Shown in pieces: positions 11,957 to 56,883 of a DNA stretch of 64,000 nucleotides. The position numbers and the translations under genes are program-made. Position 1 is the stretch's first letter, and every line of letters begins with the position of its first letter. The stretch is from contig DATGXG010000019.1 in NCBI GenBank assembly GCA_035299085.1, forward strand, positions 78,783 through 142,782. Reading direction: 5' to 3'. A model generated the notes under the pieces. It saw only the letters and a list, made by a program, of their open reading frames with translations. It was not told the origin of the DNA and did no database searches. The DNA is from Bacteroidales bacterium. GTDB taxonomy: Bacteria > Bacteroidota > Bacteroidia > Bacteroidales > UBA10428.

Positions 11957-11962
11957 GAGATG

Positions 11963-15296: not shown

Positions 15297-15400
15297 GTTT
15301 GATAGTGTTTGAATTAGTTTGAATAAGTTTGAAATGCTTGTTTTGACAAAGATTTATAACCTTTTCAAACGATTTCAAACGTCCTCAAACCGTTTCAAAC
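15297..15400. repeat. Phased decamer array: 4x GTTTGA(A/T) then 4x TCAAAC, each with exact 10-bp spacing
   Basis: GTTTGA at 15297, 15307, 15317 and 15327. TCAAAC at 15365, 15375, 15385 and 15395. Confidence 0.9.
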
Positions 15401-17019: not shown

Positions 17020-17154
17020 GTTTGATAGCTTCGCTGTTTGAATGTTTCGCGTTTGAATGCTTCGCTGTTTGAGAAAGTTTGAAAAAGAGTTTGAAACTGT
17101 TTGAAAACTCAAACTACATCAAACTACTTCAAACTACATCAAACTACTTCAAAC
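17020..17154. repeat. Phased array: 7x GTTTGA followed by 5x TCAAACTAC(A/T) tandem decamers
   Basis: GTTTGA at 17020, 17037, 17051, 17067, 17077, 17089 and 17099. TCAAAC at 17109, 17119, 17129, 17139 and 17149. Confidence 0.9.
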
Positions 17155-41423: not shown

Positions 41424-42671
41424 ATGACACCGTTTTTATTTTACCAGCTGAAAACAGGTTTGTGCCTGGTCTCCTTTGTTACGCTTTATTATATTCTTTT
41501 CCGCAAAGAAACTCACTATAGGTTAAACAGGATCTATCTTGTTTCTTCACTTGTTTTATCATTCATCCTGCCGCTTCTGCCGTTTCCTGAATTTAAAAAC
41601 CTGAAAGAAGGAACAATGACCACTTTCCTTCAGACAGTCACCATTTATGCGTACAATGCCGGAAAAGAAACTACTGTTGAAAAGACTCATACATCATTAA
41701 TTTCAACTGCCTATTCAGTTGTTGCCATGGTGTCGGCTTCGTGGATAGCCTGGCAATTACTTAATATGATCTTCCTTATTTTAAAAAGAGGATCCATAGC
41801 GCTGGGTAATTTCAGAATTATATCCCTGCCCCGGCGCTCCCTTTCCTATTCCTTTTTTAACCTGATATTCCTGTCGGCTTCAGAAAAAGAAGGAGAAAGC
41901 GACCAGGTATTAATGCATGAAATGGCCCATGCCCGGCAATTCCATTCTCTTGATATATTACTGATACAGATTATTAAAATATTTCAGTGGTTCAATCCAT
42001 TTATCTATTTGGCTGAAAAAGCATTGCAAGAAACCCACGAGTACCTGGCGGATGAAGCTGTATTGGAGCAGAACAACGATTCCGGCAGGTACAGGCTGCT
42101 CCTGCTTACCCAGGTTTTTGGGGTTCAACCCGGGATTTTTAGTTTGTTCAATTACTCACTTTTAAAAAAGCGTCTCTTTATGATGACAAAAGAAAAATCC
42201 CCCGACCGCAACCGGTTTAAATACCTGGCTGCGTTGCCTCTGATCATGGCCATATTGATTGTGCTCAGTTGCACAAAAAATCCGCCGCCACCACCGCCGC
42301 CACCGCCACCGCCTGTAACTGAAACAGAAGTTACACAGGTTTCAGATACTTCCAAAGCCTTTACGATAGTAGATGAAAACGCAAAATTTCAGAACGGCTC
42401 CCTGGAGGAATTTGGTCAATGGGTTCAGAAAAACATGGTATATCCTGAATCCGCTATTAAAAACAGCATTTCAGGTAAGGTTATGGTACAGTTTGCAGTG
42501 GATAAATTCGGAAAAGTGGCAGATGTAACGGTTGTCCGCAGCGCATCACCCACCTTGAGTGAAGAGGCCATCAGGGTAATACAGTCATCGCCCGAATGGA
42601 CCCCGGCCAAACTTGGAGGGAACAGCGTTAAACAGCAATTCGTGATGCCGGTAGTTTTCGCATTGAAGTAA
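41424..42671 (+). CDS. BlaR1-like M56 peptidase fused to a Pro-rich linker and one TonB C-terminal domain
   Basis: HEMAHARQFH zinc motif, 11 consecutive Pro codons (42282-42314), and a C-terminal TonB_C-like domain (GKVMVQFAVDKFGKV...). Confidence 0.85.
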   Translation: MTPFLFYQLKTGLCLVSFVTLYYILFRKETHYRLNRIYLVSSLVLSFILPLLPFPEFKNLKEGTMTTFLQTVTIYAYNAGKETTVEKTHTSLISTAYSVVAMVSASWIAWQLLNMIFLILKRGSIALGNFRIISLPRRSLSYSFFNLIFLSASEKEGESDQVLMHEMAHARQFHSLDILLIQIIKIFQWFNPFIYLAEKALQETHEYLADEAVLEQNNDSGRYRLLLLTQVFGVQPGIFSLFNYSLLKKRLFMMTKEKSPDRNRFKYLAALPLIMAILIVLSCTKNPPPPPPPPPPPVTETEVTQVSDTSKAFTIVDENAKFQNGSLEEFGQWVQKNMVYPESAIKNSISGKVMVQFAVDKFGKVADVTVVRSASPTLSEEAIRVIQSSPEWTPAKLGGNSVKQQFVMPVVFALK

Positions 42672-42757
42672 GTACATTCAAAATATACGGGGACAAGGTT
42701 TTCCTTGTCCCTCATTGGGTTTGATAAGTAGGATTCAGGTAATATAAAAACGTGAAT

Positions 42758-44407
42758 ATGACTCCCTTTTTGCTCTATCAGATCAAGGCCGGATTCTGTA
42801 TCATGGTGTTCACCGGCATTTATTTCCTGCTTTTGAGAAAAGAAACATTTTATGCGGGAAACAGGATTTACCTGGTTATTTCGGTCATTCTTTCAGCTCT
42901 GTTGCCATTGATCCGGCTACCACTTTTGCCGGCTGAAGGAGGGACAATAATTAACGGTTTTGAGGGAGCCGCAAATATTGATAATTTACCCGCGATAAAG
43001 CCTGAATCACCGACACATCAAATACCTGTTCTTTATATAGTTTACATTGCAATAGGTGTTTTGCTTCTAAGCCATCTGTTTTACCAGTTTTTTAGAATGA
43101 TGCTGATCGTGAAAAGAAACGGAAGCATAAGGCTTGGAAGATTTATAGTAGTTTCTCTTCCGATTAAATCTCATTCATTCTCCTTCTTCAACCTTATATT
43201 CATAGCATCGCCCACACCGCAGGAAGGAGAGAACGACCAGGTACTGCAGCACGAAATGGTACATGCGCGTCAGCTACATTCCCTGGATATCCTGATCATT
43301 CAATTTTTCAAAATATTTCAATGGTTCAATCCATTCATATACCTCACTGAAAAAGCCATGCAAGAAACCCACGAGTACCTGGCGGATGAAGCTGTATTGG
43401 AGCAGAACAGCGATTCCGGCAGGTACCGCCTGCTCCTGCTTACCCAGGTTTTTGGGGTTCAACCCGGGATTTTTAGTTTGTTCAATTACTCACTTATCAA
43501 AAACCGACTCAAAATGATGACTAAACAAAAATCCCCGCACCGCGCACAGCTTAAATACCTGGTTTTACTGCCACTGATCGCGGTCATGCTCTTGCTCAAC
43601 TGCACCAATAAAGAAGCTGAGGAAACACTTACCCAGGAAAACGAAAAAATCTGGGTTGGAACACCGCCTCCTCCAACCGGAAATATTACTCCCGACGAAG
43701 CCAACGCCGGAATCGATCCTTCAAAGATCACCGATGAGGATTCAACTTTTATCATGGTCGATCAACAGGCTCTTTTTCATGGGGGTGATTTAGAGAATTT
43801 CAGGGACTGGGTGCAGAAAAATGTAAAGTACCCTGAAAGTGAAATAAAAAGAGGAAATTCAGGAAGAGTAACTGTTCAGTTTGCCGTGAATTCAAAAGGG
43901 AAAGTAAGTATGGTTAAGATTCTGAAAGGAGTTTCACCTGCAATTGATGAAGAAGTGGCACGGGTTATTGCTTATTCCGACGACTGGACACCGGCCAGTT
44001 ATAAAGGGTTCCCGGTAAAACAGCAGTTTGTAATGCCGGTGATTTTTGAGTTGGAGAATGGTGTAAAAAGTACAGCGGCAAATGAAGAACAATCTTATAT
44101 TTTTGTCGAAAAACAGGCCGCATTCCAGGGCGGAAACCTTGAAACATTCAGGGACTGGGTGCAACAAAACCTCCGTTATCCCGAAACTGCTGCTAAAAAC
44201 GGGATATTCGGAAGAGTAACCATACAGTTTGCTGTCAATTCGGATGGGAAAGTATGTGATATAAAAATCATTAGGGGAGTTGCACCCTCCCTTGATGAAG
44301 AAGCCGTCCGCACCCTGCAATCTTCGCCGTTATGGATCCCGGCCGAACAGGAAGGAAAACACGTCAAACAACAATTCGTGATGCCGGTTGTATTTTCATT
44401 GGAATAG
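42758..44407 (+). CDS. Paralogous BlaR1-like M56 peptidase with two tandem TonB C-terminal domains
   Basis: HEMVHARQLH motif plus two TonB_C-like repeats (GRVTVQFAVNSKGKV... and GRVTIQFAVNSDGKV...). Confidence 0.85.
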   Translation: MTPFLLYQIKAGFCIMVFTGIYFLLLRKETFYAGNRIYLVISVILSALLPLIRLPLLPAEGGTIINGFEGAANIDNLPAIKPESPTHQIPVLYIVYIAIGVLLLSHLFYQFFRMMLIVKRNGSIRLGRFIVVSLPIKSHSFSFFNLIFIASPTPQEGENDQVLQHEMVHARQLHSLDILIIQFFKIFQWFNPFIYLTEKAMQETHEYLADEAVLEQNSDSGRYRLLLLTQVFGVQPGIFSLFNYSLIKNRLKMMTKQKSPHRAQLKYLVLLPLIAVMLLLNCTNKEAEETLTQENEKIWVGTPPPPTGNITPDEANAGIDPSKITDEDSTFIMVDQQALFHGGDLENFRDWVQKNVKYPESEIKRGNSGRVTVQFAVNSKGKVSMVKILKGVSPAIDEEVARVIAYSDDWTPASYKGFPVKQQFVMPVIFELENGVKSTAANEEQSYIFVEKQAAFQGGNLETFRDWVQQNLRYPETAAKNGIFGRVTIQFAVNSDGKVCDIKIIRGVAPSLDEEAVRTLQSSPLWIPAEQEGKHVKQQFVMPVVFSLE

Positions 44408-44442
44408 CTTCATACTATGCTAAGCGTAATCGAACCTTTTTT

Positions 44443-44480
44443 ACCACCTCGACAGGGTACCCCCACCCTGTCGAGGTGGT
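44443..44480. terminator. 16-bp perfect-stem hairpin ACCACCTCGACAGGGT-ACCCCC-ACCCTGTCGAGGTGGT
   Basis: Read directly, downstream of the second M56 gene. A third copy of the arm lies at 44565-44580. Confidence 0.6.
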
Positions 44481-44545
44481 GATACCAAAAAATTATCTAT
44501 AATTGTGATTATATGTTTATTACTAAATTTCAAAGGGTATATAAT

Positions 44546-45907
44546 ATGACTTTTATCATAAAAACACCCTGTCGAGGTGGTATAAAACCAAGGGTATTCT
44601 TTTCTGTTTTATTATCGTTGATAGCATTATCTGTTGCATCAGCCCAGCAAAATAAGGTCGATTCGTTAATCAGGAATTACGATTACCAGGGGGCGCTGGA
44701 AGTTATTGACAGTATTTACCCGGATAGCATGGATATGAATATGCTGTATTTAAAAGCCGTGGCATTAAAATCCCTGTCAAAGTTTCCGGATGCAATTGCC
44801 TGTTATGATTCCCTTTATAAAAATGACTCTGCCAACACAAGGATTAGCATCGAAATGGCGGATTGCTATAAATCGGTTATGAATTATGACAAACCGGAGG
44901 AGTTATACATCAAGGCACTTGAGTACAAGCCGGGAAACCGCTATTTGATGCAACTGCTGGCAGGAGTGTACATGACGACGGAGCAATTCGGCAAGGCAAA
45001 AGAATGGTACCTGGATGCCTGCACAAATGATACATCCGTTTTTCTACTGAAACAAATAGGATGGTGCTGCGACAAACTATTGCAGGATTCAGAAGCAGAG
45101 TTTTACTATAAAAAAGCGATGGCCCTTGACCCTGATGATTACCAGCCCGTCTTCAGGCTCGGTAATTTATATAAAGATCAGCGCGATTATGAGCAGGCTA
45201 TCGCGGTTACCGATTCATTCCTGAACCGGCATCCTGATAACCGGGAAGTGACAAGGTTAAGCGGTTATGCCCATTACCTGAACCAGACGTTCAGGAAAAG
45301 CATCGCCCGGTTTCGGTGTTCGCTTGAATTATCCGATTCTTCGGCATTTGTTCTGAAATACCTCGGATACAGCTATTTTAAACTGGCTGAGTACCCGAAC
45401 GCCATTAAATACATGGAAAAAGTTTATGCGGTTGATTCATCGGATGCTGATCTGTGCTGGGCCCTTGGACTTGCCCATGACGTGCCTCAGAATATAAGGT
45501 ATTTTGAACGAGCCATCGATTTAGGCTTGCCGGTTCTAACTGCCATGGCCAAAGTGTACCTCGATCTGTCGCTTGCCTACACTAAAGCATGGCGCTATAA
45601 TGAAGCTCTTGAGGCGTTGAATAATGCGTTGAACCTGAAACCGGGCGACCCCGGAGTGATCTACAAAATAGCCGTTCACTACGATAACTGGATGGATGAC
45701 AAACCTTCGGCCCTTAAGTATTACAAAGAATTTATGACGACCCGTCCGGATGATTCATCTGATTATTTCATGACAGGAATATCAGTAATTAACCGTTCCG
45801 ATTATGGCCAGGCAGAAAGACGGATTAAAGACATCGAACAAACTGCTGCTTCTGTCGTTGAAGCGGATAGCCTAACCGGACCTGAGAAATTTACACTACC
45901 GGAGTGA
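44546..45907 (+). CDS. Secreted TPR-repeat protein
   Basis: Signal peptide (VFFSVLLSLIALSVASAQQ) and multiple TPR-like A-x-x-x-Y/F...A-L-x-x-x-P units. Confidence 0.65.
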   Translation: MTFIIKTPCRGGIKPRVFFSVLLSLIALSVASAQQNKVDSLIRNYDYQGALEVIDSIYPDSMDMNMLYLKAVALKSLSKFPDAIACYDSLYKNDSANTRISIEMADCYKSVMNYDKPEELYIKALEYKPGNRYLMQLLAGVYMTTEQFGKAKEWYLDACTNDTSVFLLKQIGWCCDKLLQDSEAEFYYKKAMALDPDDYQPVFRLGNLYKDQRDYEQAIAVTDSFLNRHPDNREVTRLSGYAHYLNQTFRKSIARFRCSLELSDSSAFVLKYLGYSYFKLAEYPNAIKYMEKVYAVDSSDADLCWALGLAHDVPQNIRYFERAIDLGLPVLTAMAKVYLDLSLAYTKAWRYNEALEALNNALNLKPGDPGVIYKIAVHYDNWMDDKPSALKYYKEFMTTRPDDSSDYFMTGISVINRSDYGQAERRIKDIEQTAASVVEADSLTGPEKFTLPE

Positions 45908-46969
45908 TCCTTTAACTTCAACCAGCTTTATCAGCTGGCGCACCATGATACCGTAAATCCAATCCGCTTTTGCGGAAAATCCTTTCATTAATAACATCAC
46001 ATACTTCAATTTCAGGCCACGCCCTTTCAGGGTGGAGCCGTATGCGGCCTCCTTTGCCAAAATAAAAGTACAGATGGAAGCAAGGTGCATGACCCGATTA
46101 TCCGGCTTAAATTGGGCTAAGGTGTAATCTTCGTTGAAATATTGCTTAATCAGAAGGAAGACAAGGCTTACACATCGCCAGATCCGACTGGCAGTTGCAA
46201 TATCATAAACGATTCCAAAATCGAGTGTACCCTGTTTCTGAATCAGAAAAGCTCTTACATCCATCAGCCAGGCCAGGCGCGAAAACTGGTGCAACGCACC
46301 ATGGTAACACAAATACACAAAACTGGCCTCATCCTTCATAATGTTCACCGGTGTACCGTCAAGATCATATTTCCTGAGATCTTCAAGAAAACCGGCAAAT
46401 CGCTTTTCTGTCAGGTAGGTATTCGCTCCTGGCCTGATATGTAAATCAATGGCACAGCGGTTTTCTTTATTGAAATAATGAACCTCACGCTTGGCCACCA
46501 GGAAGATCTTCCTTCGTAAATTTCCAGGGTAATGATTCAGGTTCGACTGAGTATAGCCTGATCCTGATAAAATCGCATGAACCACCAACAGATCGGTACC
46601 ATCGGTAAGCAGAATATCCAGGTCAACCGACTCTTTTAACGCCTCCCTGCCATACAGCATCCGGCTTAGCTGTGGGCCTTTGATGCACACATAACCAATA
46701 TTTTTTTCGTTCAGCATTTCGGCAATCGTCTTTAGCTCGTTCAACTGGGTGAGCGATTGCATGGCTATCTTGCGACTGTGCGCTTCAATCCGCGAAAGCT
46801 GTTCAGCAGTGAAATATCCTCTATGTTCCCGGGCAAAATGCTGAAGGTGGTACACGGTCTTATGGCGGAAACACAGGCGGATCAGGCGGTGGATGTTCAA
46901 ATCGGTTGTCTGGTGAACCGGTTGCCCTTTGGTTATTTGCAGCAACGCTTGTATTTCGGGGTCAGGCAT
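45896..46969 (-). CDS. Uncharacterised nucleotidyltransferase-family protein (PF14907-like), lasso-cluster associated
   Basis: 357 aa with KGPQLSRMLYG...ESVDLDILL, resembling the G-x-x...D-x-D nucleotidyltransferase fold. It shares an 8-nt overlap with the cyclase gene. Confidence 0.6.
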   Translation of the reverse strand: MPDPEIQALLQITKGQPVHQTTDLNIHRLIRLCFRHKTVYHLQHFAREHRGYFTAEQLSRIEAHSRKIAMQSLTQLNELKTIAEMLNEKNIGYVCIKGPQLSRMLYGREALKESVDLDILLTDGTDLLVVHAILSGSGYTQSNLNHYPGNLRRKIFLVAKREVHYFNKENRCAIDLHIRPGANTYLTEKRFAGFLEDLRKYDLDGTPVNIMKDEASFVYLCYHGALHQFSRLAWLMDVRAFLIQKQGTLDFGIVYDIATASRIWRCVSLVFLLIKQYFNEDYTLAQFKPDNRVMHLASICTFILAKEAAYGSTLKGRGLKLKYVMLLMKGFSAKADWIYGIMVRQLIKLVEVKGSLR

Positions 46970-48902
46970 TGCTTTGGTTTTCGGTGGTGGAATGGGACCT
47001 ATGGGACGAATGGGACGGTTTTTCCAGGTAGTAAAGAAGGATCATCAGGTAATCATAAAAGGCACCTGGATTTAAATAATTCTGATCATTAGGATCTCGC
47101 TTTGCCAGTTTTGTATACCATTCCGGGAATTTTGAAAAATCAAATATGCTATGCAGAAATGGTATTCCCGATGCTTTTTGTATTATTTGCAAAATTTCAT
47201 CCTTGTCGTTTACCAGGCTTTGCAATGTTTGTGGAATGGTGCCAACAGTTTTGTCATCCCTCTTTCTTATTTCTTCCGGCACAAATCCCCTGATGGCTTC
47301 ACGGAACATATACCGGTTCTTGCCATGATGTTGTTTCATCCAGGGTGGGAAGGCAAGTGCCGTTTCAACTACATCCAAATCCAGCAACGGGTACCTGTAC
47401 TCAATTCCGTATTGGGCGGCTGCCGTATAACAATATTCCATCCTTTGCGGAAGATGATCCGGCATAATACGATCAAACTGTCTTTCTGAAAGTGTATTCC
47501 TTTTTAATTTCCTAAAATTTTCTTCAAGCCTTGCCCTGAGATGATGCTTTAACGAAAATTCACTTTTTAAGGGAAAATTCGTAAACCGTTTATCCAGTAA
47601 ATCTCTAGTAAAAACACCACTTGTATGTGTTTCTGTATTGAGCAGAAACCGGAAATAATTAAGAGCTATCTTCACTGGTTTCAAAATGGTTTTTATACGG
47701 ACTCCCTTATAAAACAATTCATCACCGATTACCCTCCATTGCTTTTTTTGAATCAGTTCATTCCATGGAAAAGAAGTCCTTGCAGAAACCAATTCATCGC
47801 CGCCGAAACCGGATAACAAAACCTGTATACCGTTGCTTCCGGCTTTTTCATACAAGCTTTTGCTGAAAATATTAAAGTTCTGCTGTATAAAACAAGAGTG
47901 AATTTTCAAGCTGTGTTTTAGAATTTCAGGAATGCTTGACTGGTGGTGATCGATTCCATACCAGCGAAAAGATCCAAAATCAATCATATACTTAATAAAC
48001 TCTTTTTCATCCTTGAAATCAACCGTTCCGCTTTCAGGAAATAAGTTTGAAAAAGTGGTTATCTGCTTTCCTGACTCTTTAAGAAACTGATTTGCAATAC
48101 CTGTAACGGCAGAGGAATCCAATCCGCCGCTTAATTCTGATCCCATAACTGCAGTTGGATTACAACGTATTTGAACAGCTTCTGCAAGTATTTTCTTCAG
48201 GAGTACTATATAATCTTTCTCAGAGCGAAGTTGGATCTGCCTGGCAGGATCAGGTTTCCAGTAAGTATCAATAACAGTCTGTCCTTGTTTGTGATGTAAA
48301 TAATGACCCGGCTTCAGGCGGTAAACCGATTGAAAGGGGGTCTGATCCTTCCGGCTTTTCACTGTGATCAGGGTGTCTGTGAAATATTCAGCCCTGAGGC
48401 CGGGTTTTTGCAAAGCATACACCAGGTAACGGATTTCAGATGCAAACAGGAAGGATCCTTTATGGAATGTATAGAACAAGGGCCGCACACCCAGATGATC
48501 GCGTCCGCAAAAAATCTCACCGGTTTTACGATTAGTTATAACAAATGCAAAATCGCCGTAAAACAGGTTCATGCAAGCCGATCCATAGCGGATCCATGCT
48601 TCAAGGACAAGGCCGGCATCAGACTGCGATTCATTTTCAATTCCGAGTTTTTCACGCAGTATTGCTCTCTTGTACAACGCTGCATCGGCAATAATTATCC
48701 AGTCGCCCTTTTCATAAACAACCTGTTCCGGTACCATTAATGGGTTATTCACGATCACGGCCATTCCGAGGAAATCACCAGCCAATTCTTTGCAGATAAG
48801 TTTCCGGGGAATTACATATTCACTTGCCCGCTTCATCCTGTCAATCAATGAAGCGTCTGGTGTTGACCCTGCAGGTGCAATAATTCCGAAAACCGGGGGC
48901 AT
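46962..48902 (-). CDS. Asparagine-synthetase-fold lasso peptide cyclase (McjC-like)
   Basis: PP-loop SGGLDSS is present. The N-terminus is MPPVFGII, with no Cys2 glutaminase nucleophile. B1/B2/precursor genes lie nearby. Confidence 0.8.
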   Translation of the reverse strand: MPPVFGIIAPAGSTPDASLIDRMKRASEYVIPRKLICKELAGDFLGMAVIVNNPLMVPEQVVYEKGDWIIIADAALYKRAILREKLGIENESQSDAGLVLEAWIRYGSACMNLFYGDFAFVITNRKTGEIFCGRDHLGVRPLFYTFHKGSFLFASEIRYLVYALQKPGLRAEYFTDTLITVKSRKDQTPFQSVYRLKPGHYLHHKQGQTVIDTYWKPDPARQIQLRSEKDYIVLLKKILAEAVQIRCNPTAVMGSELSGGLDSSAVTGIANQFLKESGKQITTFSNLFPESGTVDFKDEKEFIKYMIDFGSFRWYGIDHHQSSIPEILKHSLKIHSCFIQQNFNIFSKSLYEKAGSNGIQVLLSGFGGDELVSARTSFPWNELIQKKQWRVIGDELFYKGVRIKTILKPVKIALNYFRFLLNTETHTSGVFTRDLLDKRFTNFPLKSEFSLKHHLRARLEENFRKLKRNTLSERQFDRIMPDHLPQRMEYCYTAAAQYGIEYRYPLLDLDVVETALAFPPWMKQHHGKNRYMFREAIRGFVPEEIRKRDDKTVGTIPQTLQSLVNDKDEILQIIQKASGIPFLHSIFDFSKFPEWYTKLAKRDPNDQNYLNPGAFYDYLMILLYYLEKPSHSSHRSHSTTENQSNA

Positions 48903-48941
48903 GTTTTTCCGTGTTTTATGCTTGACTAAATTAGTTGTTTG

Positions 48942-49180
48942 GTTTGAAATCGTTTGAAGTAGGGGGTGAAATCGTTTGAAGTAGTTTGAAATGATTTGAA
49001 ATTGTTTGAAAAAGTTATTTGCGACCTACTGAAAACATGGTTTTCAGCCTATTTGTGAAATTCGCTTTTAATTTTTTATTCGTTTTTAATTCGTGCATTC
49101 GTGGTTATTTTTTGTGGCTTGATTGGTTTCAGATAGTTTCAGATGGTTTGAGGTTGTTTCATATTGTTTTCGTGTTGTTT
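48942..49180. repeat. Phased GTTTGAA / GTTT(C/G)A decamer arrays in the divergent promoter region of the lasso cluster
   Basis: (G/A)TTTGA at 48942, 48952, 48974, 48984, 48994 and 49004. A second run reads GTTTCAGATA GTTTCAGATG GTTTGAGGTT GTTTCATATT ... GTTTGAG (about 49128-49185). Confidence 0.85.
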
Positions 49181-49202
49181 GAGATTTAGGTTATTTTTGC
49201 AT

Positions 49203-50114
49203 ATGCCTGATCCATCTTCATATTCTTACAAGGCCTTCGGTTTAAATATCCTTTCTCAATTCGAGGTCCCCGGTTTTCAACCTGCCTCTTTTTCAAATGC
49301 CGATGTCACCATCGAAAGCGGGCATGTACCTGAAACCATTGATCCGGTTATCAATAAGGGAGTACTCTTCCAGGCAAATGACCATGAGTTTATCCTCAGG
49401 ATTGTAGGAATAGCATCCTACTATATTAAGTACGGCACAACGATTCGCATACAACCGCAACCAAAAGCTGTAAGCAAAGATATCGCTGCTTTTCTCACCG
49501 GAACGTGTTTCGGTGCCCTGCTGCATCAGAGGAAACTATTGCCCTTGCATGCCGGTACCGTTGTGTTCAAAAACCGGTGCCTTGTATTCATGGGACTTTC
49601 CGGCGCAGGCAAATCTACCCTTGCGGCTGCATTTTTGAAAGCAGGCGCCACATTGGTTGCGGATGACATTTCAGTAATTGATTTTTCAGGCGAACGACCG
49701 GCTGTAAGGCCTGCGTTTCCGGCTATCAAGATGTGGCAGGACAGTTTGAAACACTTAGATTATGCTACAGATGGCCTTGTCAGTGTCCGCGAAGAGCTGA
49801 AAAAATTTTACATGCCTGTTCTACAATTCAGCGAAATACCTGTTCCTGTAGATACGCTTTTTATATTAAACAGCTACAACAAGCCGGATGCCCTGATCAA
49901 ATCTATTGAAGGAATGGATAAATTCCAGGCAGTGATAAGGCATACGTACCTGTTCCGTGGGATACCGAAAACAGGGCTTGAACAAAACCATTTTATACTG
50001 GCCGGAAAGCTGATCACAACCATTCCGCTTTTCATGCTGTCAAGGCCAGACAGTCATTTTAACACCGACAATCTTCTTGAGTTAATAAAGGAAAAAGCCG
50101 GTATCAATGGATGA
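49203..50114 (+). CDS. HPr-kinase-related P-loop kinase (lasso precursor kinase-like)
   Basis: YKAFGLNILS N-terminus and the Walker A motif GLSGAGKSTLAAAFLKAGATLVADD. ATG at 49203 is preferred. Confidence 0.75.
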   Translation: MPDPSSYSYKAFGLNILSQFEVPGFQPASFSNADVTIESGHVPETIDPVINKGVLFQANDHEFILRIVGIASYYIKYGTTIRIQPQPKAVSKDIAAFLTGTCFGALLHQRKLLPLHAGTVVFKNRCLVFMGLSGAGKSTLAAAFLKAGATLVADDISVIDFSGERPAVRPAFPAIKMWQDSLKHLDYATDGLVSVREELKKFYMPVLQFSEIPVPVDTLFILNSYNKPDALIKSIEGMDKFQAVIRHTYLFRGIPKTGLEQNHFILAGKLITTIPLFMLSRPDSHFNTDNLLELIKEKAGING

Positions 50115-50949
50115 TACCAAAAAAATAATATGGCTGGCTTCGTATCCGAAATCGGGTAACACCTGGTTCAGGGCATTTCTGACAGCACTTCTTAACCCGG
50201 ATTTAAAAGAAGTGGACATCAACAACATGGCACAAACTACCATTGCCAGCAGCCGGCAATTGTTTGATGAGGTTTCAGGAATTGAATCTTCCGATCTGAC
50301 TGCAGATGAGATCGATTCCCTGAGGCCGCGGATTTACAGGCAAAACGCTTTTGAATCAAATGAAGTCATTTATCACAAGATCCACGATGCCTGGGATGTA
50401 TTGCCCGATGGAACAGCCCTGTTTCCCATGGAAGCAACAAAAGGCGTGTTATATTTTATCCGGAATCCGCTGGATGTGGCCATTTCTTTTGCCAACCACC
50501 TGAATACAAGCATAGACAGGACTATAGAAATAATGAACAACCCGACTTATGCCTTCTGTGAAAAGAATAGTAAGCTATATAACCAGCTCCGACAACGGTT
50601 ACATACGTGGAGTGGTCATGTTAAAAGCTGGACTGAAGATTCAGGACTTCCCCTAATGGTGATCCGTTATGAAGACATGCTAACGGATACACTGGCCATC
50701 TTTTCAAAAGCAGTTTCCTTTATAGGTTTGGACCAATCTGAAGTCAATATTAAAAAAGCCCTTGACCTCTCTTCTTTTGAACAGCTCCGAAAGCAGGAAG
50801 AAACAAAGGGCTTTTCTGAAAAGAGCGCCAAATCGGAGCGATTTTTCAGGAAAGGCATAGCAGGCGACTGGAAGACTATGTTAAGCAAAGAACAAGTTGG
50901 CCGGATCAAGGAAGCACATAGTTTAACTATGTTAAAATTCGGGTATTAG
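50107..50949 (+). CDS. PAPS-dependent sulfotransferase-family protein
   Basis: 5'-PSB loop YPKSGNTWFRAF and 3'-PB region RYEDM...FFRKGIAGDWK. It shares an 8-nt overlap with the kinase gene. Confidence 0.85.
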   Translation: MDDTKKIIWLASYPKSGNTWFRAFLTALLNPDLKEVDINNMAQTTIASSRQLFDEVSGIESSDLTADEIDSLRPRIYRQNAFESNEVIYHKIHDAWDVLPDGTALFPMEATKGVLYFIRNPLDVAISFANHLNTSIDRTIEIMNNPTYAFCEKNSKLYNQLRQRLHTWSGHVKSWTEDSGLPLMVIRYEDMLTDTLAIFSKAVSFIGLDQSEVNIKKALDLSSFEQLRKQEETKGFSEKSAKSERFFRKGIAGDWKTMLSKEQVGRIKEAHSLTMLKFGY

Positions 50950-51009
50950 CGTAAAATACTGTTGATAAAATGTAACATTGCGCTTAAAAAAGTTGTATAT
51001 TTTCGAAAC

Positions 51010-51031
51010 ATATTCATATTTGTATGAATAT
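51010..51031. promoter_or_regulatory. Perfect 9-bp inverted repeat ATATTCATA-TTTG-TATGAATAT upstream of the pqqD-like gene; its centre contains a near-consensus -7 box (CATATTTG)
   Basis: Read directly. It ends 23 nt before the ATG at 51054. Confidence 0.4.
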
Positions 51032-51053
51032 CACCTAACCTGACCATTGACGT

Positions 51054-51371
51054 ATGGGAATTTTTACTGCAAAGAAGGAGATCGGGCCGGACACGGTGTT
51101 ACAGCGAAGGAATGATCTTTTATTCAACGAAATAGACGGGGAAATGGTAATGCTCTCAATTCATAACGGGGAGTATTATGGGATGGATAAAGTAGGTTCG
51201 AGAATTTGGAAGATTCTATCTGAACCTATAAAACTTTCTTGTCTGGTAGATAAGTTGATTTTAGAATATGAAATAAATAGAGATCAATGCTTAATTGACA
51301 CGGTTAATTTCTTGGAAAAATTACATGATAAGGCTTTAATCTTTTATGAAACAATTCCTGATAAACAATAA
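51054..51371 (+). CDS. PqqD-family RiPP recognition element (lasso B1)
   Basis: 105 aa, LLFNEIDGEMVMLSIHNGEYYGMDKVGSRIWKIL...LIDTVNFLEKL. This is the typical PqqD pattern. Confidence 0.85.
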   Translation: MGIFTAKKEIGPDTVLQRRNDLLFNEIDGEMVMLSIHNGEYYGMDKVGSRIWKILSEPIKLSCLVDKLILEYEINRDQCLIDTVNFLEKLHDKALIFYETIPDKQ

Positions 51372-51759
51372 AAAATTAAAATCTTTCATATTTTCAAGAA
51401 TTGTGGAAGTAATATTTATTTTATTGATTTTAATGTCATTATTTGTTAGATCATTAATATTTCTTTTGCCTTTAAGAACGTATAAATTTTTACTTTTTAA
51501 GCAACCTGAAATTGAAGAATCAACTTATAAAAAGTATAAAATAAAATGTTTAAACTGTGCGATTAAGAAATTTGATAAGTTGAAATTTTTAAATACATCA
51601 TGTTTTGCTAAAACAATAACAATTAAAATTTTTGCTCTCATATTTAGAATAAACAGTCTAATCGAATTAAATGTAAATACTAGAAACGAAAAAATGAGTG
51701 CACATGCTGAAATTACTTTTATTACAAAATCTAAATCCCTTTTGCTTACCTTAAATTGA
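51346..51759 (+). CDS. Lasso peptide B2 leader peptidase (transglutaminase-core-like)
   Basis: N-terminal TM-like segment, then NTSC-(33 aa)-HAEITF, comparable to the Cys...AHAW(V/I)E spacing of B2 proteins. It overlaps the pqqD-like gene by 26 nt. Confidence 0.65.
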   Translation: MKQFLINNKKLKSFIFSRIVEVIFILLILMSLFVRSLIFLLPLRTYKFLLFKQPEIEESTYKKYKIKCLNCAIKKFDKLKFLNTSCFAKTITIKIFALIFRINSLIELNVNTRNEKMSAHAEITFITKSKSLLLTLN

Positions 51760-51761
51760 TT

Positions 51762-51908
51762 ATGATGGATATTGAATTGCAAAATAAAAGAGAATGGAAT
51801 CCACCAACACTGAAAAGTCTATCAGTCAAAAAAACAGGCGGTAGTGATTCGGCTCAGTTTGGAGAAGAATCACAATATATTGATCAGGACCCTGAAAGTG
51901 GTTTTTAA
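51762..51908 (+). CDS. Candidate lasso peptide precursor (48 aa): MMDIELQNKREWNPPTLKSLSVKKTGGSDSAQFGEESQYIDQDPESGF
   Basis: Translated by hand. It starts 2 nt after the B2 stop. The leader has W-x-x-P-x-L and a Thr at the predicted -2 position. The predicted core is GSDSAQFGE..., with Gly1 and Glu9. Confidence 0.6.
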   Translation: MMDIELQNKREWNPPTLKSLSVKKTGGSDSAQFGEESQYIDQDPESGF

Positions 51909-51923
51909 ATTAACTACTTAATT

Positions 51924-54900
51924 ATGAAACTAAGATGTTCAATTAGTATTTTTTCAATTTTTATTACTGCTTTATCTTTTTCACAAGGTTGGGTCAACTC
52001 TTTGGTTATAAAAGGCTCCCAAATTGAGCCTAGATTTTCAGTAATAGACAATAATAATAACCTCATTATTTACAGTTATTTTTCTGATACTGTCTACTCT
52101 CCGTTAACTATATCGTATGGTTTAAGAGATTTATTTATAACCAAAATAAATTCCGGTGGCAGCATTCTTTGGAATAAGAGAATAGGAACTGCTAATTCAG
52201 ATGCACCTGGAGGCTTATTTGTCGATAATGATGACAATATCTATTTGACCGGTGGCTATTATTCAACGTTGAAATTTTCAACAACTGATAGTTTAAAAAA
52301 TAGTGGTAGTAGTGATATTTTTCTGGCCAAATATGATAAAAACGGAGTATTCTTATGGTCAAAAAAATTAACTTCAGCAACCACCCTGGAAATACCGCTT
52401 GACATAAAATTTGATGGGAACAATAATTTCCTTATGTCAGGTTATTTTAAGGATAGTTTGATAATCGGTGATAACCATTCTAATATTGATACTCTTTTAG
52501 GAAACACCTACAACTCACATTTTATTGCTCTATTTGATTTAAATGGAAATTTGAGCTGGTCAAAGTCTTTTTTAGGTACAAATAATTTATCTAGAATCTA
52601 CAAGGTTGGGACAAGCAGTAATGGATATTATTTTGGAGGTTATTTTGCAGGAAATTTGACTTTTGATGTAGGGACTATATCAAGTTATTCAACCAATTAC
52701 TATGACGCTTTTTTATATAAGACTGATATTAATGGACAAGGACAATGGATAAGACGTATAAGAGGTACGGCTCATGAAAATTTTCGATCATTGTCTATCG
52801 ACGAATTTGAAAATATTTACATTCTAGGGAATTATAATAGTTCGACAATATATATTGACTCTACTTCCTCAGCGATTAAAACAGTATCAGTAAATACTGG
52901 TGGATATGATACATATATTGCTAAATATAACCGAAGTGGAATCCTTCAATGGTTTCTACGAAAAGGCAGTACGGCAAAAGACATATATAATGATTTCGTT
53001 GTTCGAAATAACGTTATTTATGCAACCGGATATTTCACTGGACAAATAACTTTTCATAATGATGTCCTTACAACCAGCAGCGCAACTAATTCAGATGCTT
53101 TTGTTGCCGCATTCAATGAAATTGGCGACCCTATATCTGGGGTGAGTGTCGTAGGCACAGGCAATTACGAAGATGCCGGTACCATAGTGAATATGGATGC
53201 CAGTTCAAGGGCCTACGTGGCCGGTTACTATAAATCACAGCAAATTAAAATCGGTTCCCAAACCTACACGAGTAATAATCTTAATAAGAGCGATTTATTC
53301 TTTGCTATTTACAAACAGCGTTTTCAGGCCGTTGTCACCGATGAAGACATGGTTTCCTGCAACGGTCTGAGTGATGGAATGCTTTCTGTTACACCGTATT
53401 TCGGCAGGCCGCCATATACCTATTCATGGAGCCATAACCCGGCGCTTAATAATCCTACGGCACAAAATTTACCGGCCGGTTCTTATATCTGCACGGTCAC
53501 CGATGCCAATGACAGCATTACCCATGTAACCGGTATTGTATCGCAACCCAATCCATTTTCAGTCAATGGGGCCCTGACAAACCCGGTATGTTACAACGAA
53601 AATACAGGTGTCATCAATATTACCGTCACAGGAGGGAATACAGGTGGTTACAGTTATTTCTGGACATCACCCGACGGATCCGGAATTCAGCCGCTCATCG
53701 AGGACCAGGCAGGCTTAAGCCACGGAACATACACGGTCCGTATTCTTGATAGTAAAAATTGCGCCGATACAACTGATTTTCTTCTCACCGAACCGGCACC
53801 TTTCAATTATGAGGGCACTGCTGTCACAAAAATTTTCATTCCGCCGGGAAATAACGGTGCAATCAACTTAATTCCGCATGGCGGCACGGCACCATACACC
53901 TATTCATGGTCCGGACCCAACGGCTATACAGCAACATCCGAAGATATCGGTAACCTGAATGATGCAGGGTTATATAATCTCACTATCCATGATTCAAAAA
54001 GCTGCACGGGTGATACCACATTTACAGTTATTGATAACTTCACCTTTCAGGCTGAAATCTTTGATAAAACTGACGTCCTCTGCAAAGGTGCTGCTAACGG
54101 AACGGCAACTGTCCAGGTTTTCAATGGCACAAAACCTTATTCCTATCAATGGAGTGATGGCGTAACCCTTAATGATTCGGTACGAACCGGTATGACACCC
54201 GGAAATTATATTATTACTGTTACCGATGGTGCAATGCATACTAGTCAGGCACGTGTTACTATTACAGAACCTACATTGCCTTTGTCGGTCGTTCTTTTAC
54301 CTCAGGATCTTCATTGTTATAATGACAATTCCGGAGTTATTGATGCCACTATCAATGGAGGAACATTACCCTATTCTTATTCATGGTCCAGCGGTTACAC
54401 AGGAGAAGATCTTGTTAACGTGGCTGCTGGCATTTACACTGTTACTGTTACTGATGCCAATGGCTGCCAGGTGCAGGATACAAAAGAGATTACCCAGCCC
54501 GGCATGATGGTGGTAACTCCTGAAATAAATACTCCCATACTGTGCCATGGAAATCGTGGTGGTGTTGCTACTGTAAATGTCACTGGCGGTGTATTACCCT
54601 ATTCTTATGTATGGGATGACCGTGGCGACCAGACAACTGCAACAGCATATGACCTCAGGGCACGTACCTATCATTGTACGGTAACCGATTTCAATGAATG
54701 TTCTCAAACTGTTGACGTACCCTTACTCGAACCGGATTCACTTTATGTGGATGTGATCATTAATAATCCATCTTGCCCGGGACTGGAAGATGGCTCCATT
54801 GCTCCGACTCCTCATGGCGGAACGGGACCCGGTTACGAATACATCTGGTCGAATTCAGTCTTCCAGCGCTTTAACACCGATATTCCGGCAGGCATGTATA

Positions 54901-55955
54901 TTCTTACAATGAATGATGCCAATAACTGCGTTATTGTGGACACATTCAACCTTGCCGATCCGGATACCGTGAAAATCACATCGGTTGATGTTGCCGATAT
55001 TACCTGCCCCGGTAAAACCGATGGATCATTGACGATTCATGCCACAGGCGGATCCGGAATATATGAGTTTTCGACCGACAACGGCGATAATTATGATAAC
55101 CAGTCTGTTGCAGACAACCTGCCCTCTGGCGATTATACCGTATTGGTAAGGGACGATAAAGACTGCATTTCTGAAAACCAGCTTGCAACGATCAGTATTT
55201 CCGATACGGTAACCATTGATACAATCGATATTGCCAATGCCACCTGTAATGGAATCCATGACGGTGCGGTAACCCTTAAAGTTACCGGTGGAACAGGCAC
55301 TTACCAGTATTCAACCGACGGCGGATCAACCTTTGGCGGTGCTTCAATTCTTGCAGCCCTTGCTTCCGGTAACTACACTATCGTTGTACGCGATGGCAAT
55401 GATTGTAATTCGGAACAGTCCCTGATTACGCTGACAAACTCAGACACCATCTCAATAAGCCATATCGAATCCACCGATCTTACCTGTTCGGGACTTCCTG
55501 ACGGAACCATCACGATTACCGGGTCCGGAGGGTCAGGAGTATACCAGTATTCTATTGACGGTGGAACTACTTTTTCGGATCAACCGGCCTTCACGGGATT
55601 AAGCCAGTCTGAATACGATGTTGTCGTTAAAGATGATCATGAATGCCTTTCCGAAGAAAGCGATGTGATCCTGAATTCGCAGGACGTTTGCAGCCTTATA
55701 CTGTATAATGCCTTCACCCCGAATGATGACGGCAAGAATGATGTGTGGGATATTGAGAATGTTGCCAGTTTTCCCGATATCGTTGTGAAAATATTCAATA
55801 TCTGGGGTAAGGAAGTATTCAATTCAAAAGGCTATGATACGCCTTGGGACGGAACCTATAACGGCAATGATCTTCCCTCAGGAACCTATTATTATGTCAT
55901 CGATCCCGGAGACGGTTCCGGAATCCTGACAGGCGATGTCAGCATTGTTAAATAA
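51924..55955 (+). CDS. Giant cell-surface protein: SBBP-like beta-propeller repeats, about 13 SprB-type repeats and a type B T9SS (gliding-motility) C-terminal domain
   Basis: D(A/I)F(L/I)AKY...G..LWSK repeats. Repeated C..x..DG...(V/I)..GG..PYxYSWS units. C-terminal NAFTPNDDGKNDVW...GTYYYVI. Confidence 0.85.
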   Translation: MKLRCSISIFSIFITALSFSQGWVNSLVIKGSQIEPRFSVIDNNNNLIIYSYFSDTVYSPLTISYGLRDLFITKINSGGSILWNKRIGTANSDAPGGLFVDNDDNIYLTGGYYSTLKFSTTDSLKNSGSSDIFLAKYDKNGVFLWSKKLTSATTLEIPLDIKFDGNNNFLMSGYFKDSLIIGDNHSNIDTLLGNTYNSHFIALFDLNGNLSWSKSFLGTNNLSRIYKVGTSSNGYYFGGYFAGNLTFDVGTISSYSTNYYDAFLYKTDINGQGQWIRRIRGTAHENFRSLSIDEFENIYILGNYNSSTIYIDSTSSAIKTVSVNTGGYDTYIAKYNRSGILQWFLRKGSTAKDIYNDFVVRNNVIYATGYFTGQITFHNDVLTTSSATNSDAFVAAFNEIGDPISGVSVVGTGNYEDAGTIVNMDASSRAYVAGYYKSQQIKIGSQTYTSNNLNKSDLFFAIYKQRFQAVVTDEDMVSCNGLSDGMLSVTPYFGRPPYTYSWSHNPALNNPTAQNLPAGSYICTVTDANDSITHVTGIVSQPNPFSVNGALTNPVCYNENTGVINITVTGGNTGGYSYFWTSPDGSGIQPLIEDQAGLSHGTYTVRILDSKNCADTTDFLLTEPAPFNYEGTAVTKIFIPPGNNGAINLIPHGGTAPYTYSWSGPNGYTATSEDIGNLNDAGLYNLTIHDSKSCTGDTTFTVIDNFTFQAEIFDKTDVLCKGAANGTATVQVFNGTKPYSYQWSDGVTLNDSVRTGMTPGNYIITVTDGAMHTSQARVTITEPTLPLSVVLLPQDLHCYNDNSGVIDATINGGTLPYSYSWSSGYTGEDLVNVAAGIYTVTVTDANGCQVQDTKEITQPGMMVVTPEINTPILCHGNRGGVATVNVTGGVLPYSYVWDDRGDQTTATAYDLRARTYHCTVTDFNECSQTVDVPLLEPDSLYVDVIINNPSCPGLEDGSIAPTPHGGTGPGYEYIWSNSVFQRFNTDIPAGMYILTMNDANNCVIVDTFNLADPDTVKITSVDVADITCPGKTDGSLTIHATGGSGIYEFSTDNGDNYDNQSVADNLPSGDYTVLVRDDKDCISENQLATISISDTVTIDTIDIANATCNGIHDGAVTLKVTGGTGTYQYSTDGGSTFGGASILAALASGNYTIVVRDGNDCNSEQSLITLTNSDTISISHIESTDLTCSGLPDGTITITGSGGSGVYQYSIDGGTTFSDQPAFTGLSQSEYDVVVKDDHECLSEESDVILNSQDVCSLILYNAFTPNDDGKNDVWDIENVASFPDIVVKIFNIWGKEVFNSKGYDTPWDGTYNGNDLPSGTYYYVIDPGDGSGILTGDVSIVK

Positions 55956-55959
55956 CGTC

Positions 55960-56883
55960 ATGAACACCACTATGAAGAACATAAAAATATATCACTCCGT
56001 TCTGACAGTACTGGTCATCATGCTGTTCGTGACATTTTCAGCTAAGGTAGAGGCTCAGCAGATCCCCAACTTCAGCATGTACAACATGAATCATTACCTT
56101 GTGAATCCGGCTGCAACAGGCATAACCGACCGGCTGCCGGTTTCCTTGTCATACAGGAAGATTTGGGCGGGAATGACCAATGCACCTTCTGTACAATATC
56201 TTTCGGCGAATACCCAGGTTGCAGATAACATGGGTGTCGGAGCACGGCTCTTTAATTTCCAGGCTGGACCGTTGCGAAAAACTGGTCTTGAAGGAACTTA
56301 CAGCTATCATATTGACGTAGGCACAGAGGGAAAACTATCATTCGGACTTTCACTCCTTTTTTACCAGTTCAAGCTCAGCAAATCGGAGATGTTTGTTAAA
56401 GATATTACCGATGAGTTAATCATGGGAGATGAACAGATGTTTGTTCCTGATGCCGGAATCGGCGTATATTATTACGGCCCGAACTATTACGCCGGTATTG
56501 CAGTGCCTCAACTGTTCCAGCGTAACATCGACCTGAAATCGGATGCCATCCTGCAGCAAAAACAGGTAAGGCATTATTATATTCATGGCGGTTATATTTT
56601 TGATGCCGGAACCGATTTTAAAATAGAGCCTTCCCTGCTGCTGAAATTTGTTGAAAGCGGCATCTTCCAGGCAGATGTTAACGCCCTTGTCACTTATAAA
56701 GATATGGTGAATTTCGGCTTATCCTACAGAACTTCCGAAGCACTTTCCTTCCAGGTCGGCTATAAGAACCCGGATATTTTTATCGGCTATGCTTATGATC
56801 TCATCCTTTCAGGTATGAAAAGCAACACCTGGGGATCGCACGAGATATTGTTCACGTATACGCTGGATAATTTCCTTAAATAG
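55960..56883 (+). CDS. PorP/SprF-family type IX secretion membrane protein
   Basis: QQIPNFSMYNMNHYLVNPAATG N-terminal signature. It lies directly after a type B CTD cargo gene. The start is 55960 or 55972. Confidence 0.85.
   Translation: MNTTMKNIKIYHSVLTVLVIMLFVTFSAKVEAQQIPNFSMYNMNHYLVNPAATGITDRLPVSLSYRKIWAGMTNAPSVQYLSANTQVADNMGVGARLFNFQAGPLRKTGLEGTYSYHIDVGTEGKLSFGLSLLFYQFKLSKSEMFVKDITDELIMGDEQMFVPDAGIGVYYYGPNYYAGIAVPQLFQRNIDLKSDAILQQKQVRHYYIHGGYIFDAGTDFKIEPSLLLKFVESGIFQADVNALVTYKDMVNFGLSYRTSEALSFQVGYKNPDIFIGYAYDLILSGMKSNTWGSHEILFTYTLDNFLK

Follow-up and report, generated by a model that had tools for sequence, protein, structure and literature searches.

A probable lasso peptide gene cluster with candidate kinase, sulfotransferase and nucleotidyltransferase-like tailoring genes in a Bacteroidales bacterium

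We analyzed a window of 64,000 nucleotides (nt) from an uncultured Bacteroidales bacterium of the UBA10428 lineage, corresponding to positions 78,783-142,782 on the forward strand of contig DATGXG010000019.1 (assembly GCA_035299085.1). The region from 45,896 to 51,908 of this window is probably an intact cluster encoding a tailored lasso peptide of class II, of the type that is associated with kinases and resembles paeninodin and pseudomycoidin. The initial annotation of this DNA had proposed a complete set of the lasso genes A, B1, B2 and C together with three tailoring genes. All seven open reading frames (ORFs) that it claimed were present at the coordinates given, and the set as a whole was supported by family models, by orthologous loci and by conservation of the precursor. 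The genes and the control region between them are as follows.

45896-46969, minus strand: N, an NTP_transf_5 protein of 357 amino acids (PF14907), PsmN-like candidate tailoring enzyme
46962-48902, minus strand: C, predicted lasso macrolactam synthetase (AsnB homologue) of 646 amino acids (PF00733 and GATase_7)
48903-49202, no strand: divergent intergenic region between C and K, presumed to hold the promoters, with phased 10-bp tandem repeats
49203-50114, plus strand: K, HPr-kinase-like P-loop kinase of 303 amino acids counted from the ATG (HprK-related models)
50107-50949, plus strand: S, sulfotransferase of the 3'-phosphoadenosine-5'-phosphosulfate (PAPS) type, 280 amino acids (PF00685)
51054-51371, plus strand: B1, PqqD-like recognition element for peptides made ribosomally and modified post-translationally (RiPPs), 105 amino acids (PF05402, NF033536)
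51346-51759, plus strand: B2, strongly diverged, putative transglutaminase-like leader peptidase of 137 amino acids, with a guanine-plus-cytosine (GC) content of 21.5%
51762-51908, plus strand: A, precursor of 48 codons, with predicted leader MMDIELQNKREWNPPTLKSLSVKKTG and core GSDSAQFGEESQYIDQDPESGF

The seven genes, all with intact reading frames, were packed into 6 kb and formed two divergent units around a 300-bp control region, with C-N read from the minus strand and K-S-B1-B2-A from the plus strand. S overlapped K by 8 nt and B2 overlapped B1 by 26 nt. The start of N and the stop of C also overlapped by 8 nt, in agreement with the coupling of C to a nucleotidyltransferase-like gene described initially. 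By virtue of these overlaps, K-S and C-N are translationally coupled pairs within the core operons. The open frame of K extended from 49164 to 50114, and its likely start is the ATG at 49203, which matches the start in all orthologues.

In a Pfam scan, C matched PF00733 with an E value of 8e-34 and also matched GATase_7. When compared with the NCBIfam models, C scored best with NF033535, which models lasso cyclases; its 285 bits lay under that model's cut-off of 525 bits, and it reached 224 bits with the asparagine synthetase model asn_synth_AEB (TIGR01536, cut-off 267). On this comparison C was closer to the model for lasso cyclases than to the one for asparagine synthetases. C had been described as an AsnB-fold protein with an intact PP-loop that lacks the Cys2 nucleophile, and this was confirmed both for C itself, whose N-terminus is MPPVFG (residue 2 is Pro) and whose PP-loop reads SGGLDSS, and for its family, in which none of the 99 full-length members began with Met-Cys and all 99 carried SGG[LI]DS. 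The 105-residue PqqD-like protein was likewise borne out: B1 matched PF05402 (E 2e-14) and, at 82.1 bits, exceeded the curated cut-off of 80 for the lasso PqqD model NF033536 (lasso_PqqD_Bac).

The 48-residue product of A joins leader and core at a predicted junction between ...KKT-G and GSDSAQFGE..., and no further precursor-like ORF was found in the window. Small ORFs orthologous to A occupied the same position in six related loci (L003, L005, L008, L089, L091 and L092). A profile of seven aligned clade precursors retrieved the window precursor at E 5e-14 together with five more from the protein collection, giving a clade set of 12. Trp12, Pro15, Leu20, Thr25 (position -2), Glu35 (core Glu9) and Pro44 were invariant. 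The W-x-x-P leader motif and the Thr at -2 were present in all 12 precursors, core position 1 was Gly or Ser in 11 and position 2 was Gly in all 12, and position 10 was Asp or Glu. The window sequence predicts a Gly1-Glu9 macrolactam whose ring has 9 residues and whose acidic tail has 13. The only family model matched was NF033524, for paeninodin-type precursors, which was found by six of the seven aligned clade precursors at scores below its cut-off (best E 1.8e-5); the window precursor gave E 0.005 and 16.6 bits against a cut-off of 27. Elsewhere in the K-S family, locus L020 encoded six or more precursors and had multiple genes for C and K.

Relatives of C numbered 1388 at E < 1e-20, and all those with names in the top 120 came from Bacteroidales metagenome-assembled genomes (MAGs). 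When species-representative genomes were searched with C, the sole hit was a spurious match of 32 residues in an Oscillospiraceae MAG, and close relatives of C occurred in metagenomes and MAGs only. The N-C / K-S-B1-B2-A order was repeated in at least nine Bacteroidales loci from metagenomes in which C was 37-78% identical. In these loci PorP/SprF, SprB-like, A, B2, B1, S and K genes lay on one strand and C and N on the other, followed beyond C-N by variable genes and then by polysaccharide deacetylase and TMEM260-like genes. Because the same order recurs in nine independent related loci, the arrangement is not due to chance.

A metagenome scan with an alignment of S yielded at least 585 relatives, and the best 80 loci were annotated with our own hidden Markov models. 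K was directly upstream of S in 43 of the 50 annotated loci with enough flanking sequence. Where at least 4 kb was available on each side (19 loci), K and S were present in every locus, B1 in 18, C in 15 and N in 8. The annotated K-S lasso loci ranged in GC content from 31 to 74%. As the pair recurs in lasso loci across this range, it is a widespread candidate module for lasso tailoring and not special to this window.

The three candidate tailoring enzymes were compared with family models, solved structures and characterized homologues. K alone matched the HprK-related models weakly (TIGR04352, E 8e-9; TIGR04355, E 5e-8). A profile built from 16 K orthologues matched HPr kinase/phosphorylase sequences in the PDB (2qmh, 1jb1, 3tqf and 1ko7; E 2.8e-8 to 2e-7) over a segment spanning the P-loop, GLSGAGKST in the window, and the Asp-Asp segment. 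The Walker A residues G131, S133, G134, G136, K137 and S138 were conserved along with D154/D155, and G136, K137, D154 and D155 were invariant. These matches and the retained motifs agree with the HprK-like assignment made initially. In PsmK, the corresponding kinase of the pseudomycoidin cluster, a D158A/D159A mutant was inactive (PMC6993621).

S matched PF00685 (Sulfotransfer_1) at E 1e-26 and contained the 5'-phosphosulfate loop PKSGNTW and the 3'-phosphate motif RKGIAGDWK. Residues P14-W20, H93, R119, S127, R248 and G250 were at least 90% conserved in 81 relatives, so that the PAPS-binding loops and His93, the putative catalytic residue, are kept and the proposed sulfotransferase assignment is upheld. 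By sequence, the nearest solved relatives were Teg12 (E 5e-15) and Teg14 (E 1.5e-13), followed by cytosolic phenol sulfotransferases, and StaL matched at E 6e-7. Teg12, Teg14 and StaL (PDB 3mg9, 3nib and 2ov8) use PAPS to sulfate hydroxyl groups in peptide natural products. Their similarity to S is low and lies mostly within S residues 106-233, and their substrates are non-ribosomal glycopeptide aglycones. In the searchable literature we found no characterized sulfated lasso peptide and no assigned function for the sulfotransferases of lasso clusters, which have been noted since 2014.

N matched PF14907 at E 5e-38, consistent with its description as nucleotidyltransferase-like, and Lys97, Gly98, Asp116, Asp118 (in VDLDIL), His177 and His223 were invariant across 13 family members; the two Asp form the predicted metal-binding D-x-D. 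The pseudomycoidin gene psmN is needed for hexose addition onto the phospho-Ser of the peptide, and a D134A/D136A double mutant of PsmN was inactive (PMC6993621); the N protein of pseudomycoidin attaches one or two hexoses to the phosphate (PMC8498205). Because a gene of this kind serves hexose addition in pseudomycoidin, the earlier suggestion that the product could be nucleotidylated probably has the chemistry wrong.

Among known systems, the closest likenesses were to the pseudomycoidin and paeninodin clusters. The pseudomycoidin cluster of Bacillus pseudomycoides DSM 12442, psmCAKB1B2ND (PMC6993621), likewise combines split B1/B2 proteins and C with an HprK-like kinase that has an essential Asp-Asp pair and an 'uncharacterised nucleotidyltransferase' with an essential D-x-D; the likeness of K and N to their counterparts is one of family and motif. 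The pseudomycoidin ring, Ala1-Glu9, is the same size as the Gly1-Glu9 ring predicted here (PMC6993621). The psm genes are co-linear in a Firmicute, whereas those of the window are divergent in a member of the Bacteroidales. The psm cluster also has an ATP-binding cassette (ABC) exporter gene (psmD), no sulfotransferase and a C-terminal Ser acceptor, and the window is the opposite on each count. The paeninodin (pade) cluster of Paenibacillus dendritiformis C454 is also of the kinase type, and its family model is the one model that the window precursor resembled, below the cut-off as given above. The pade cluster has a D transporter but no N (PMC6993621), whereas the window has N but no D. The paeninodin kinase, PadeK, is reported to accept only a C-terminal Ser, and kinases of such clusters are described as phosphorylating this Ser on the linear precursor (PMC8498205), whereas the window peptide ends in SGF. 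The system thus resembles the paeninodin/pseudomycoidin type but departs from it in lacking both the C-terminal Ser acceptor and a D exporter.

The same three accessory families also occur beside A/B1/B2/C in clusters from Firmicutes. HPr kinase and sulfotransferase genes were noted in 2014 in lasso clusters of anaerobic Firmicutes (Letzel 2014, PMC4289311). According to the account of Zhu 2016 relayed in PMC8498205, clusters of Firmicutes begin with a putative sulfotransferase and have a nucleotidyltransferase, sometimes fused to B2, between B2 and D. As far as that account goes, the order differs from that of the window, in which the coupled K-S pair is found upstream of B1, the opposite strand carries N coupled to C, and D is missing. 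The initial annotation had presented the gene combination as one without a characterized lasso peptide in Bacteroidota. This part of the claim held, as we found no characterized lasso peptide from Bacteroidota in the searchable literature, and Bacteroidetes have been called an underexplored source of lasso peptides (PMC7533575). The novelty of the combination did not hold, because the trio of kinase, sulfotransferase and nucleotidyltransferase is already known from Firmicutes and the architecture is common in uncultured Bacteroidales. The clade differs in its lack of an exporter, the sub-terminal Ser, the fast divergence of B2 and A, and the SprB-like gene that follows A.

The gene families, catalytic motifs, precursor invariants, operon couplings and conserved architecture described so far are features observed in the locus; what we infer is in which order the steps occur, which residues are acceptors, what chemistry N and S perform and by which route the peptide is exported. 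The RiPP recognition element B1 would bind the leader via the conserved W-x-x-P-x-L...K-T motif, and B2 (Cys86/His120) would cleave after Gly26, one residue past the invariant Thr at -2. C, with ATP at the PP-loop SGGLDSS, would adenylate the side chain of Glu9 and join it to the amine of Gly1. The result would be a 9-residue ring threaded by the 13-residue acidic tail of the core GSDSAQFGEESQYIDQDPESGF. K would phosphorylate the near-C-terminal Ser (Ser20, ...PESGF), probably on the linear precursor, and N would then modify this phosphate, by analogy with PsmN through addition of a hexose. S would use PAPS to sulfate one of the peptide's hydroxyl groups. The preferred candidate site for S is Tyr13, because Tyr occurs in a conserved acidic context in the clade and because the nearest solved relatives of S act on phenolic groups of peptide antibiotics. 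Ser or Thr, the hexose or the phosphate may also be targets of S.

Several results weigh against an intact cluster with this tailoring, and they concern the acceptor residues, export and self-protection, and B2. The core ends in ...PESGF, so the candidate acceptor Ser is not C-terminal and the rule of a paeninodin-type C-terminal Ser acceptor is broken by this peptide. Since PadeK is reported to take only a C-terminal Ser, phosphorylation by K is extrapolated here. Ser was C-terminal in 4 of the 12 clade precursors, and all 12 had Ser or Thr within the last four residues; the other endings in the clade, with one to three residues past the last Ser, were SGF, SPL, SPQ, SGNN, SETN, GSQ, SP and SGN. 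In the wider K-S family most precursors were Ser-terminal. A further locus, L037, carried three tandem precursors (2988-3520) that end in TSLEPV, TSLEMD and TSYVPF, with a non-terminal Ser like that of the window. A Tyr lay 1-4 residues past Glu9-Asp10 in 11 of the 12 clade precursors. Only about half of the wider K-S family has a Tyr after the ring, and Tyr therefore cannot be the universal target of S.

With regard to export and self-protection, no ABC transporter (ABC_tran or ABC_membrane) was found within ~10 kb on either side of the cluster or in the nine related loci, which bears out the initial remark that no dedicated ABC exporter is visible, and no linked immunity gene was found in the scanned surroundings in the window. 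In L060 (1713-3485), a K-S-B1-B2-C-N cluster of another low-GC lineage, an ABC_membrane/ABC_tran exporter is located ~1.5 kb upstream, beyond the precursor ORF. Because that cluster has an exporter, the absence is specific to the Bacteroidales clade.

The remaining points against concern B2. The 137-residue protein gave no match to any Pfam family, PF13471 included, and reached only E 0.05 and 14 bits with NF033537, against a cut-off of 33. Beyond the catalytic His, about six residues are deleted and no Asp is present; orthologues hold either Asp or Asn at the position of this Asp, which therefore varies within the clade. A word-indexed homologue search with B2 returned only B2 itself, and a B2 profile found no match among PDB sequences. 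An AlphaFold2 model, helical in its N-terminal part and then forming a beta-hairpin sheet, had a mean predicted local distance difference test score (pLDDT) of 78 and a predicted template modelling score (pTM) of 0.71. Foldseek comparison of this model with the PDB gave nothing significant, the best being the transglutaminase-like TglA at E 0.12. The fold matches to TglA and vasohibin, both transglutaminase-like, were not counted as evidence, as their E values were 0.1 or worse.

B2 was linked to the family by other routes. A phmmer search of 1.8 billion representatives gave five matches (E 2e-6 to 7e-4); all five were above the cut-off of PF13471 and two reached that of NF033537. The positional orthologues of B2 in L003, L005 and L008 matched PF13471, with a best E of 1e-15. 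Pro42, Cys86, Ala119 and His120 were invariant in both alignments, with a Cys86-His120 spacing of 33. The initial annotation had assigned B2 as a lasso peptidase from this spacing. The Cys and His are conserved, and intermediate homologues and gene position tie the protein to the family; direct matches to the curated models were not obtained. For the small proteins together, B1 thus passed its model directly, and B2 did not and was supported only through intermediates. We consider B2 a probable, unusually diverged lasso B2 that may be catalytically competent.

A crippled locus was also weighed, in which B2 is degenerate and the precursor has drifted, so that no mature tailored peptide is made or the leader is removed by other proteases. 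The missed models, the deletion after His120 and the absent downstream Asp would fit this explanation, as would the 19-28% identity of B2 to its orthologues compared with 43-83% for C, K and S. Pseudomycoidin can be produced in E. coli without B1 and B2 (PMC6993621). Moreover, in two related loci, L004 (3300-5600) and L007 (3670-5670), B2 and the precursor occurred in frameshifted fragments, for example ...KKEWHTPSFQIISFKDTKGWRLRILN, while K, S, C and N were intact. These fragments may be pseudogenes or, since the contig names suggest long-read assemblies, homopolymer errors in AT-rich DNA. In the window, however, every ORF is intact and the 8-nt and 26-nt overlaps are kept, B2 retains Cys86, His120, Pro42 and the other family invariants and is modelled with fair confidence, and the precursor has kept every invariant residue. 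The GC content of B2 was 21-27% in five of six loci, and low GC with fast divergence of B2 is therefore a property of the family and not of this copy. We regard a crippled locus as unlikely.

The same divergence was visible in the DNA. Between the window and L003, the flanking sequence was ~80% identical over 42733-51229 and 52557-56805. The segment in between (51229-52557), which holds B2 and A together with the C-terminal half of B1 and the initial ~210 codons of the SprB-like gene, showed no detectable DNA similarity and had a GC content of 28-32%. At the protein level, B2 was 19% identical between the two loci, K and S were 81-83% identical, and the SprB-like protein aligned at 74% over its full length. 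Recent horizontal transfer of the low-GC 51-52.5 kb segment was considered and rejected, given the low GC of B2 in five of six loci and the full-length alignment of the SprB-like protein. Because of that shared low GC, the segment is better described as a fast-evolving AT-rich module than as a recent import.

Around the cluster, the window contained a TPR protein, two BlaR1-like M56/TonB_C proteins, a polysaccharide deacetylase, a TMEM260-like protein, an SprB-repeat protein, PorP/SprF and purD. The BlaR1-like genes are arranged in tandem (41424-42671 and 42752-44407); they encode peptidase M56 and a TonB C-terminal domain, and one has a run of 11 Pro. With the TPR gene (44513-45907) they make up a variable insert that separates N from the conserved deacetylase/TMEM260-like genes; related loci had one, two or no BlaR1-like genes. 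The two neighbours downstream of A are as follows.

51924-55955, plus strand: SprB-repeat, beta-propeller, type IX secretion cargo protein of 1343 amino acids (PF13573), a conserved neighbour and possible member of the cluster
55936-56883, plus strand: PorP/SprF type IX secretion membrane protein (PF11751, E 1.5e-72), a conserved neighbour

The SprB-like protein matched PF13573 (E 6e-76) and CHU_C (E 9e-26), has a type B sorting domain for type IX secretion and, in the window, an SBBP beta-propeller N-terminal region. Its gene starts 15 nt past the stop of A, and no terminator-like site was found between the two. In every Bacteroidales locus examined, the SprB-like gene began 10-76 nt after A on the same strand, except for an apparent overlap of ~29 nt in L003. 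It also directly followed A in L013 (8759-10903) and L014 (8840-10618), and in the more distant L058 it lay beside the cluster, after C (10400-13375). PorP/SprF came after the SprB-like gene in L003, L004, L007 and the P0080 locus, and PorP/SprF and purD usually follow.

This adjacency raises the possibility that the lasso operon is functionally coupled to the SprB-repeat type IX protein and PorP/SprF, which would stand in for the ABC exporter. An operon of this kind, without an exporter and co-transcribed with the SprB-like adhesin and PorP/SprF genes, would make an anionic (phospho-, sulfo- and possibly glycosyl-) peptide that serves the surface or gliding apparatus and is not an antibiotic, with K shifted to the sub-terminal Ser. 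If this were true, the peptide would be a ligand, modulator or signal for the surface protein or for the gliding/adhesion apparatus. The close spacing after A, the missing terminator-like site and the lack of an exporter in the Bacteroidales loci, set against its presence in the unrelated L060, all speak for such coupling. However, purD and the deacetylase and TMEM260-like flanks are conserved as well, and because of this inherited gene order is the simpler explanation of the adjacency and suffices for it. Type IX cargo requires a Sec signal and a C-terminal sorting domain, and a 22-residue lasso peptide is too short for both. In addition, an SprB-like neighbour is missing from most of the K-S lasso loci found elsewhere. 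We judge both the coupling and the peptide's proposed surface role to be quite improbable.

The neighbouring genes also bear on whether K, S and N modify some other substrate encoded nearby, for instance a glycan or the SprB-like surface protein, in place of the lasso peptide. Genes for a TMEM260-like O-mannosyltransferase, a polysaccharide deacetylase and a large surface adhesin are indeed conserved neighbours, and the literature search yielded no sulfated lasso peptide. Nevertheless, K-S sits between C and B1/B2 in loci spanning the full 31-74% range of GC content, mostly without the Bacteroidales neighbours, and the K-S and C-N pairs are translationally coupled inside the core operons. Homologues of K and N act on lasso precursors in paeninodin and pseudomycoidin (PMC8498205, PMC6993621). 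Another substrate is thus very improbable. Finally, the reading of C as an ordinary asparagine synthetase or amidotransferase, with chance small ORFs and no RiPP cluster, could draw on its score under the lasso cyclase cut-off and on the label 'asparagine synthase' that homologues carry in the source databases, but it is refuted, as far as sequence evidence goes, by the loss of Cys2 in all 99 family members, the higher score with the lasso model, the B1 score above its cut-off, a conserved precursor family with lasso-defining residues and an architecture kept across nine loci.

The region between C and K contained short tandem repeats, identified with Tandem Repeats Finder as GTTTGAAATC (6.8 copies, 48942-49011) and GATTGTTTCA (4.8 copies, 49121-49169). 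Repeats were present at the same place in other loci, namely GGTGGAAC in the C/K region 7677-7967 of L003 (15 copies), ATGGTTGTG in that of L005 (7545-7784; 12 copies), AGTGAAA in that of L091 (5701-5767; 9 copies) and ATCTGAAACC in that of L092 (5849-5957; 7 copies). Short repeats of 7-10 bp in the C/K region are thus conserved as a feature and not in sequence. In the window, phased arrays of a GTTTGAA-N3 decamer occurred at three intergenic sites (15297-15400, 17067-17154 and 48942-49010), with 19 matches compared with 1.2 expected. At the sites near 15.3 and 17.1 kb a plus-oriented array faced a minus-oriented one, and at the lasso site a plus array was followed by a different, GTTTCA-type repeat. 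A role of the arrays as a lasso-specific operator was rejected, as such arrays were also present among the window's housekeeping genes. Because two of the sites separate such genes (fumarase, release factor, recX and prmC), the arrays are better viewed as a genome-wide intergenic element. In the release-factor ORF (15403-16257, minus strand), the PCRF match began only at profile position 68, and the N-terminal part must therefore lie in another frame; a programmed +1 frameshift of prfB would fit.

The gene families involved, and the chemistries of K and N, are already known, and the finding is one of use to the specialist rather than a startling one. It raises the questions of how a kinase family strict for C-terminal Ser deals with a sub-terminal Ser and by what route a peptide is released if there is no ABC exporter. 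As a compact test system, the Bacteroidales clade would suit studies of the lasso sulfotransferase, and it gives an entry to the lasso peptides of Bacteroidota. K and S are tightly coupled inside lasso clusters across many phyla and, because the pair recurs so broadly, sulfation, or some other step that depends on PAPS, is likely to be widespread among lasso peptides as a modification not yet described.

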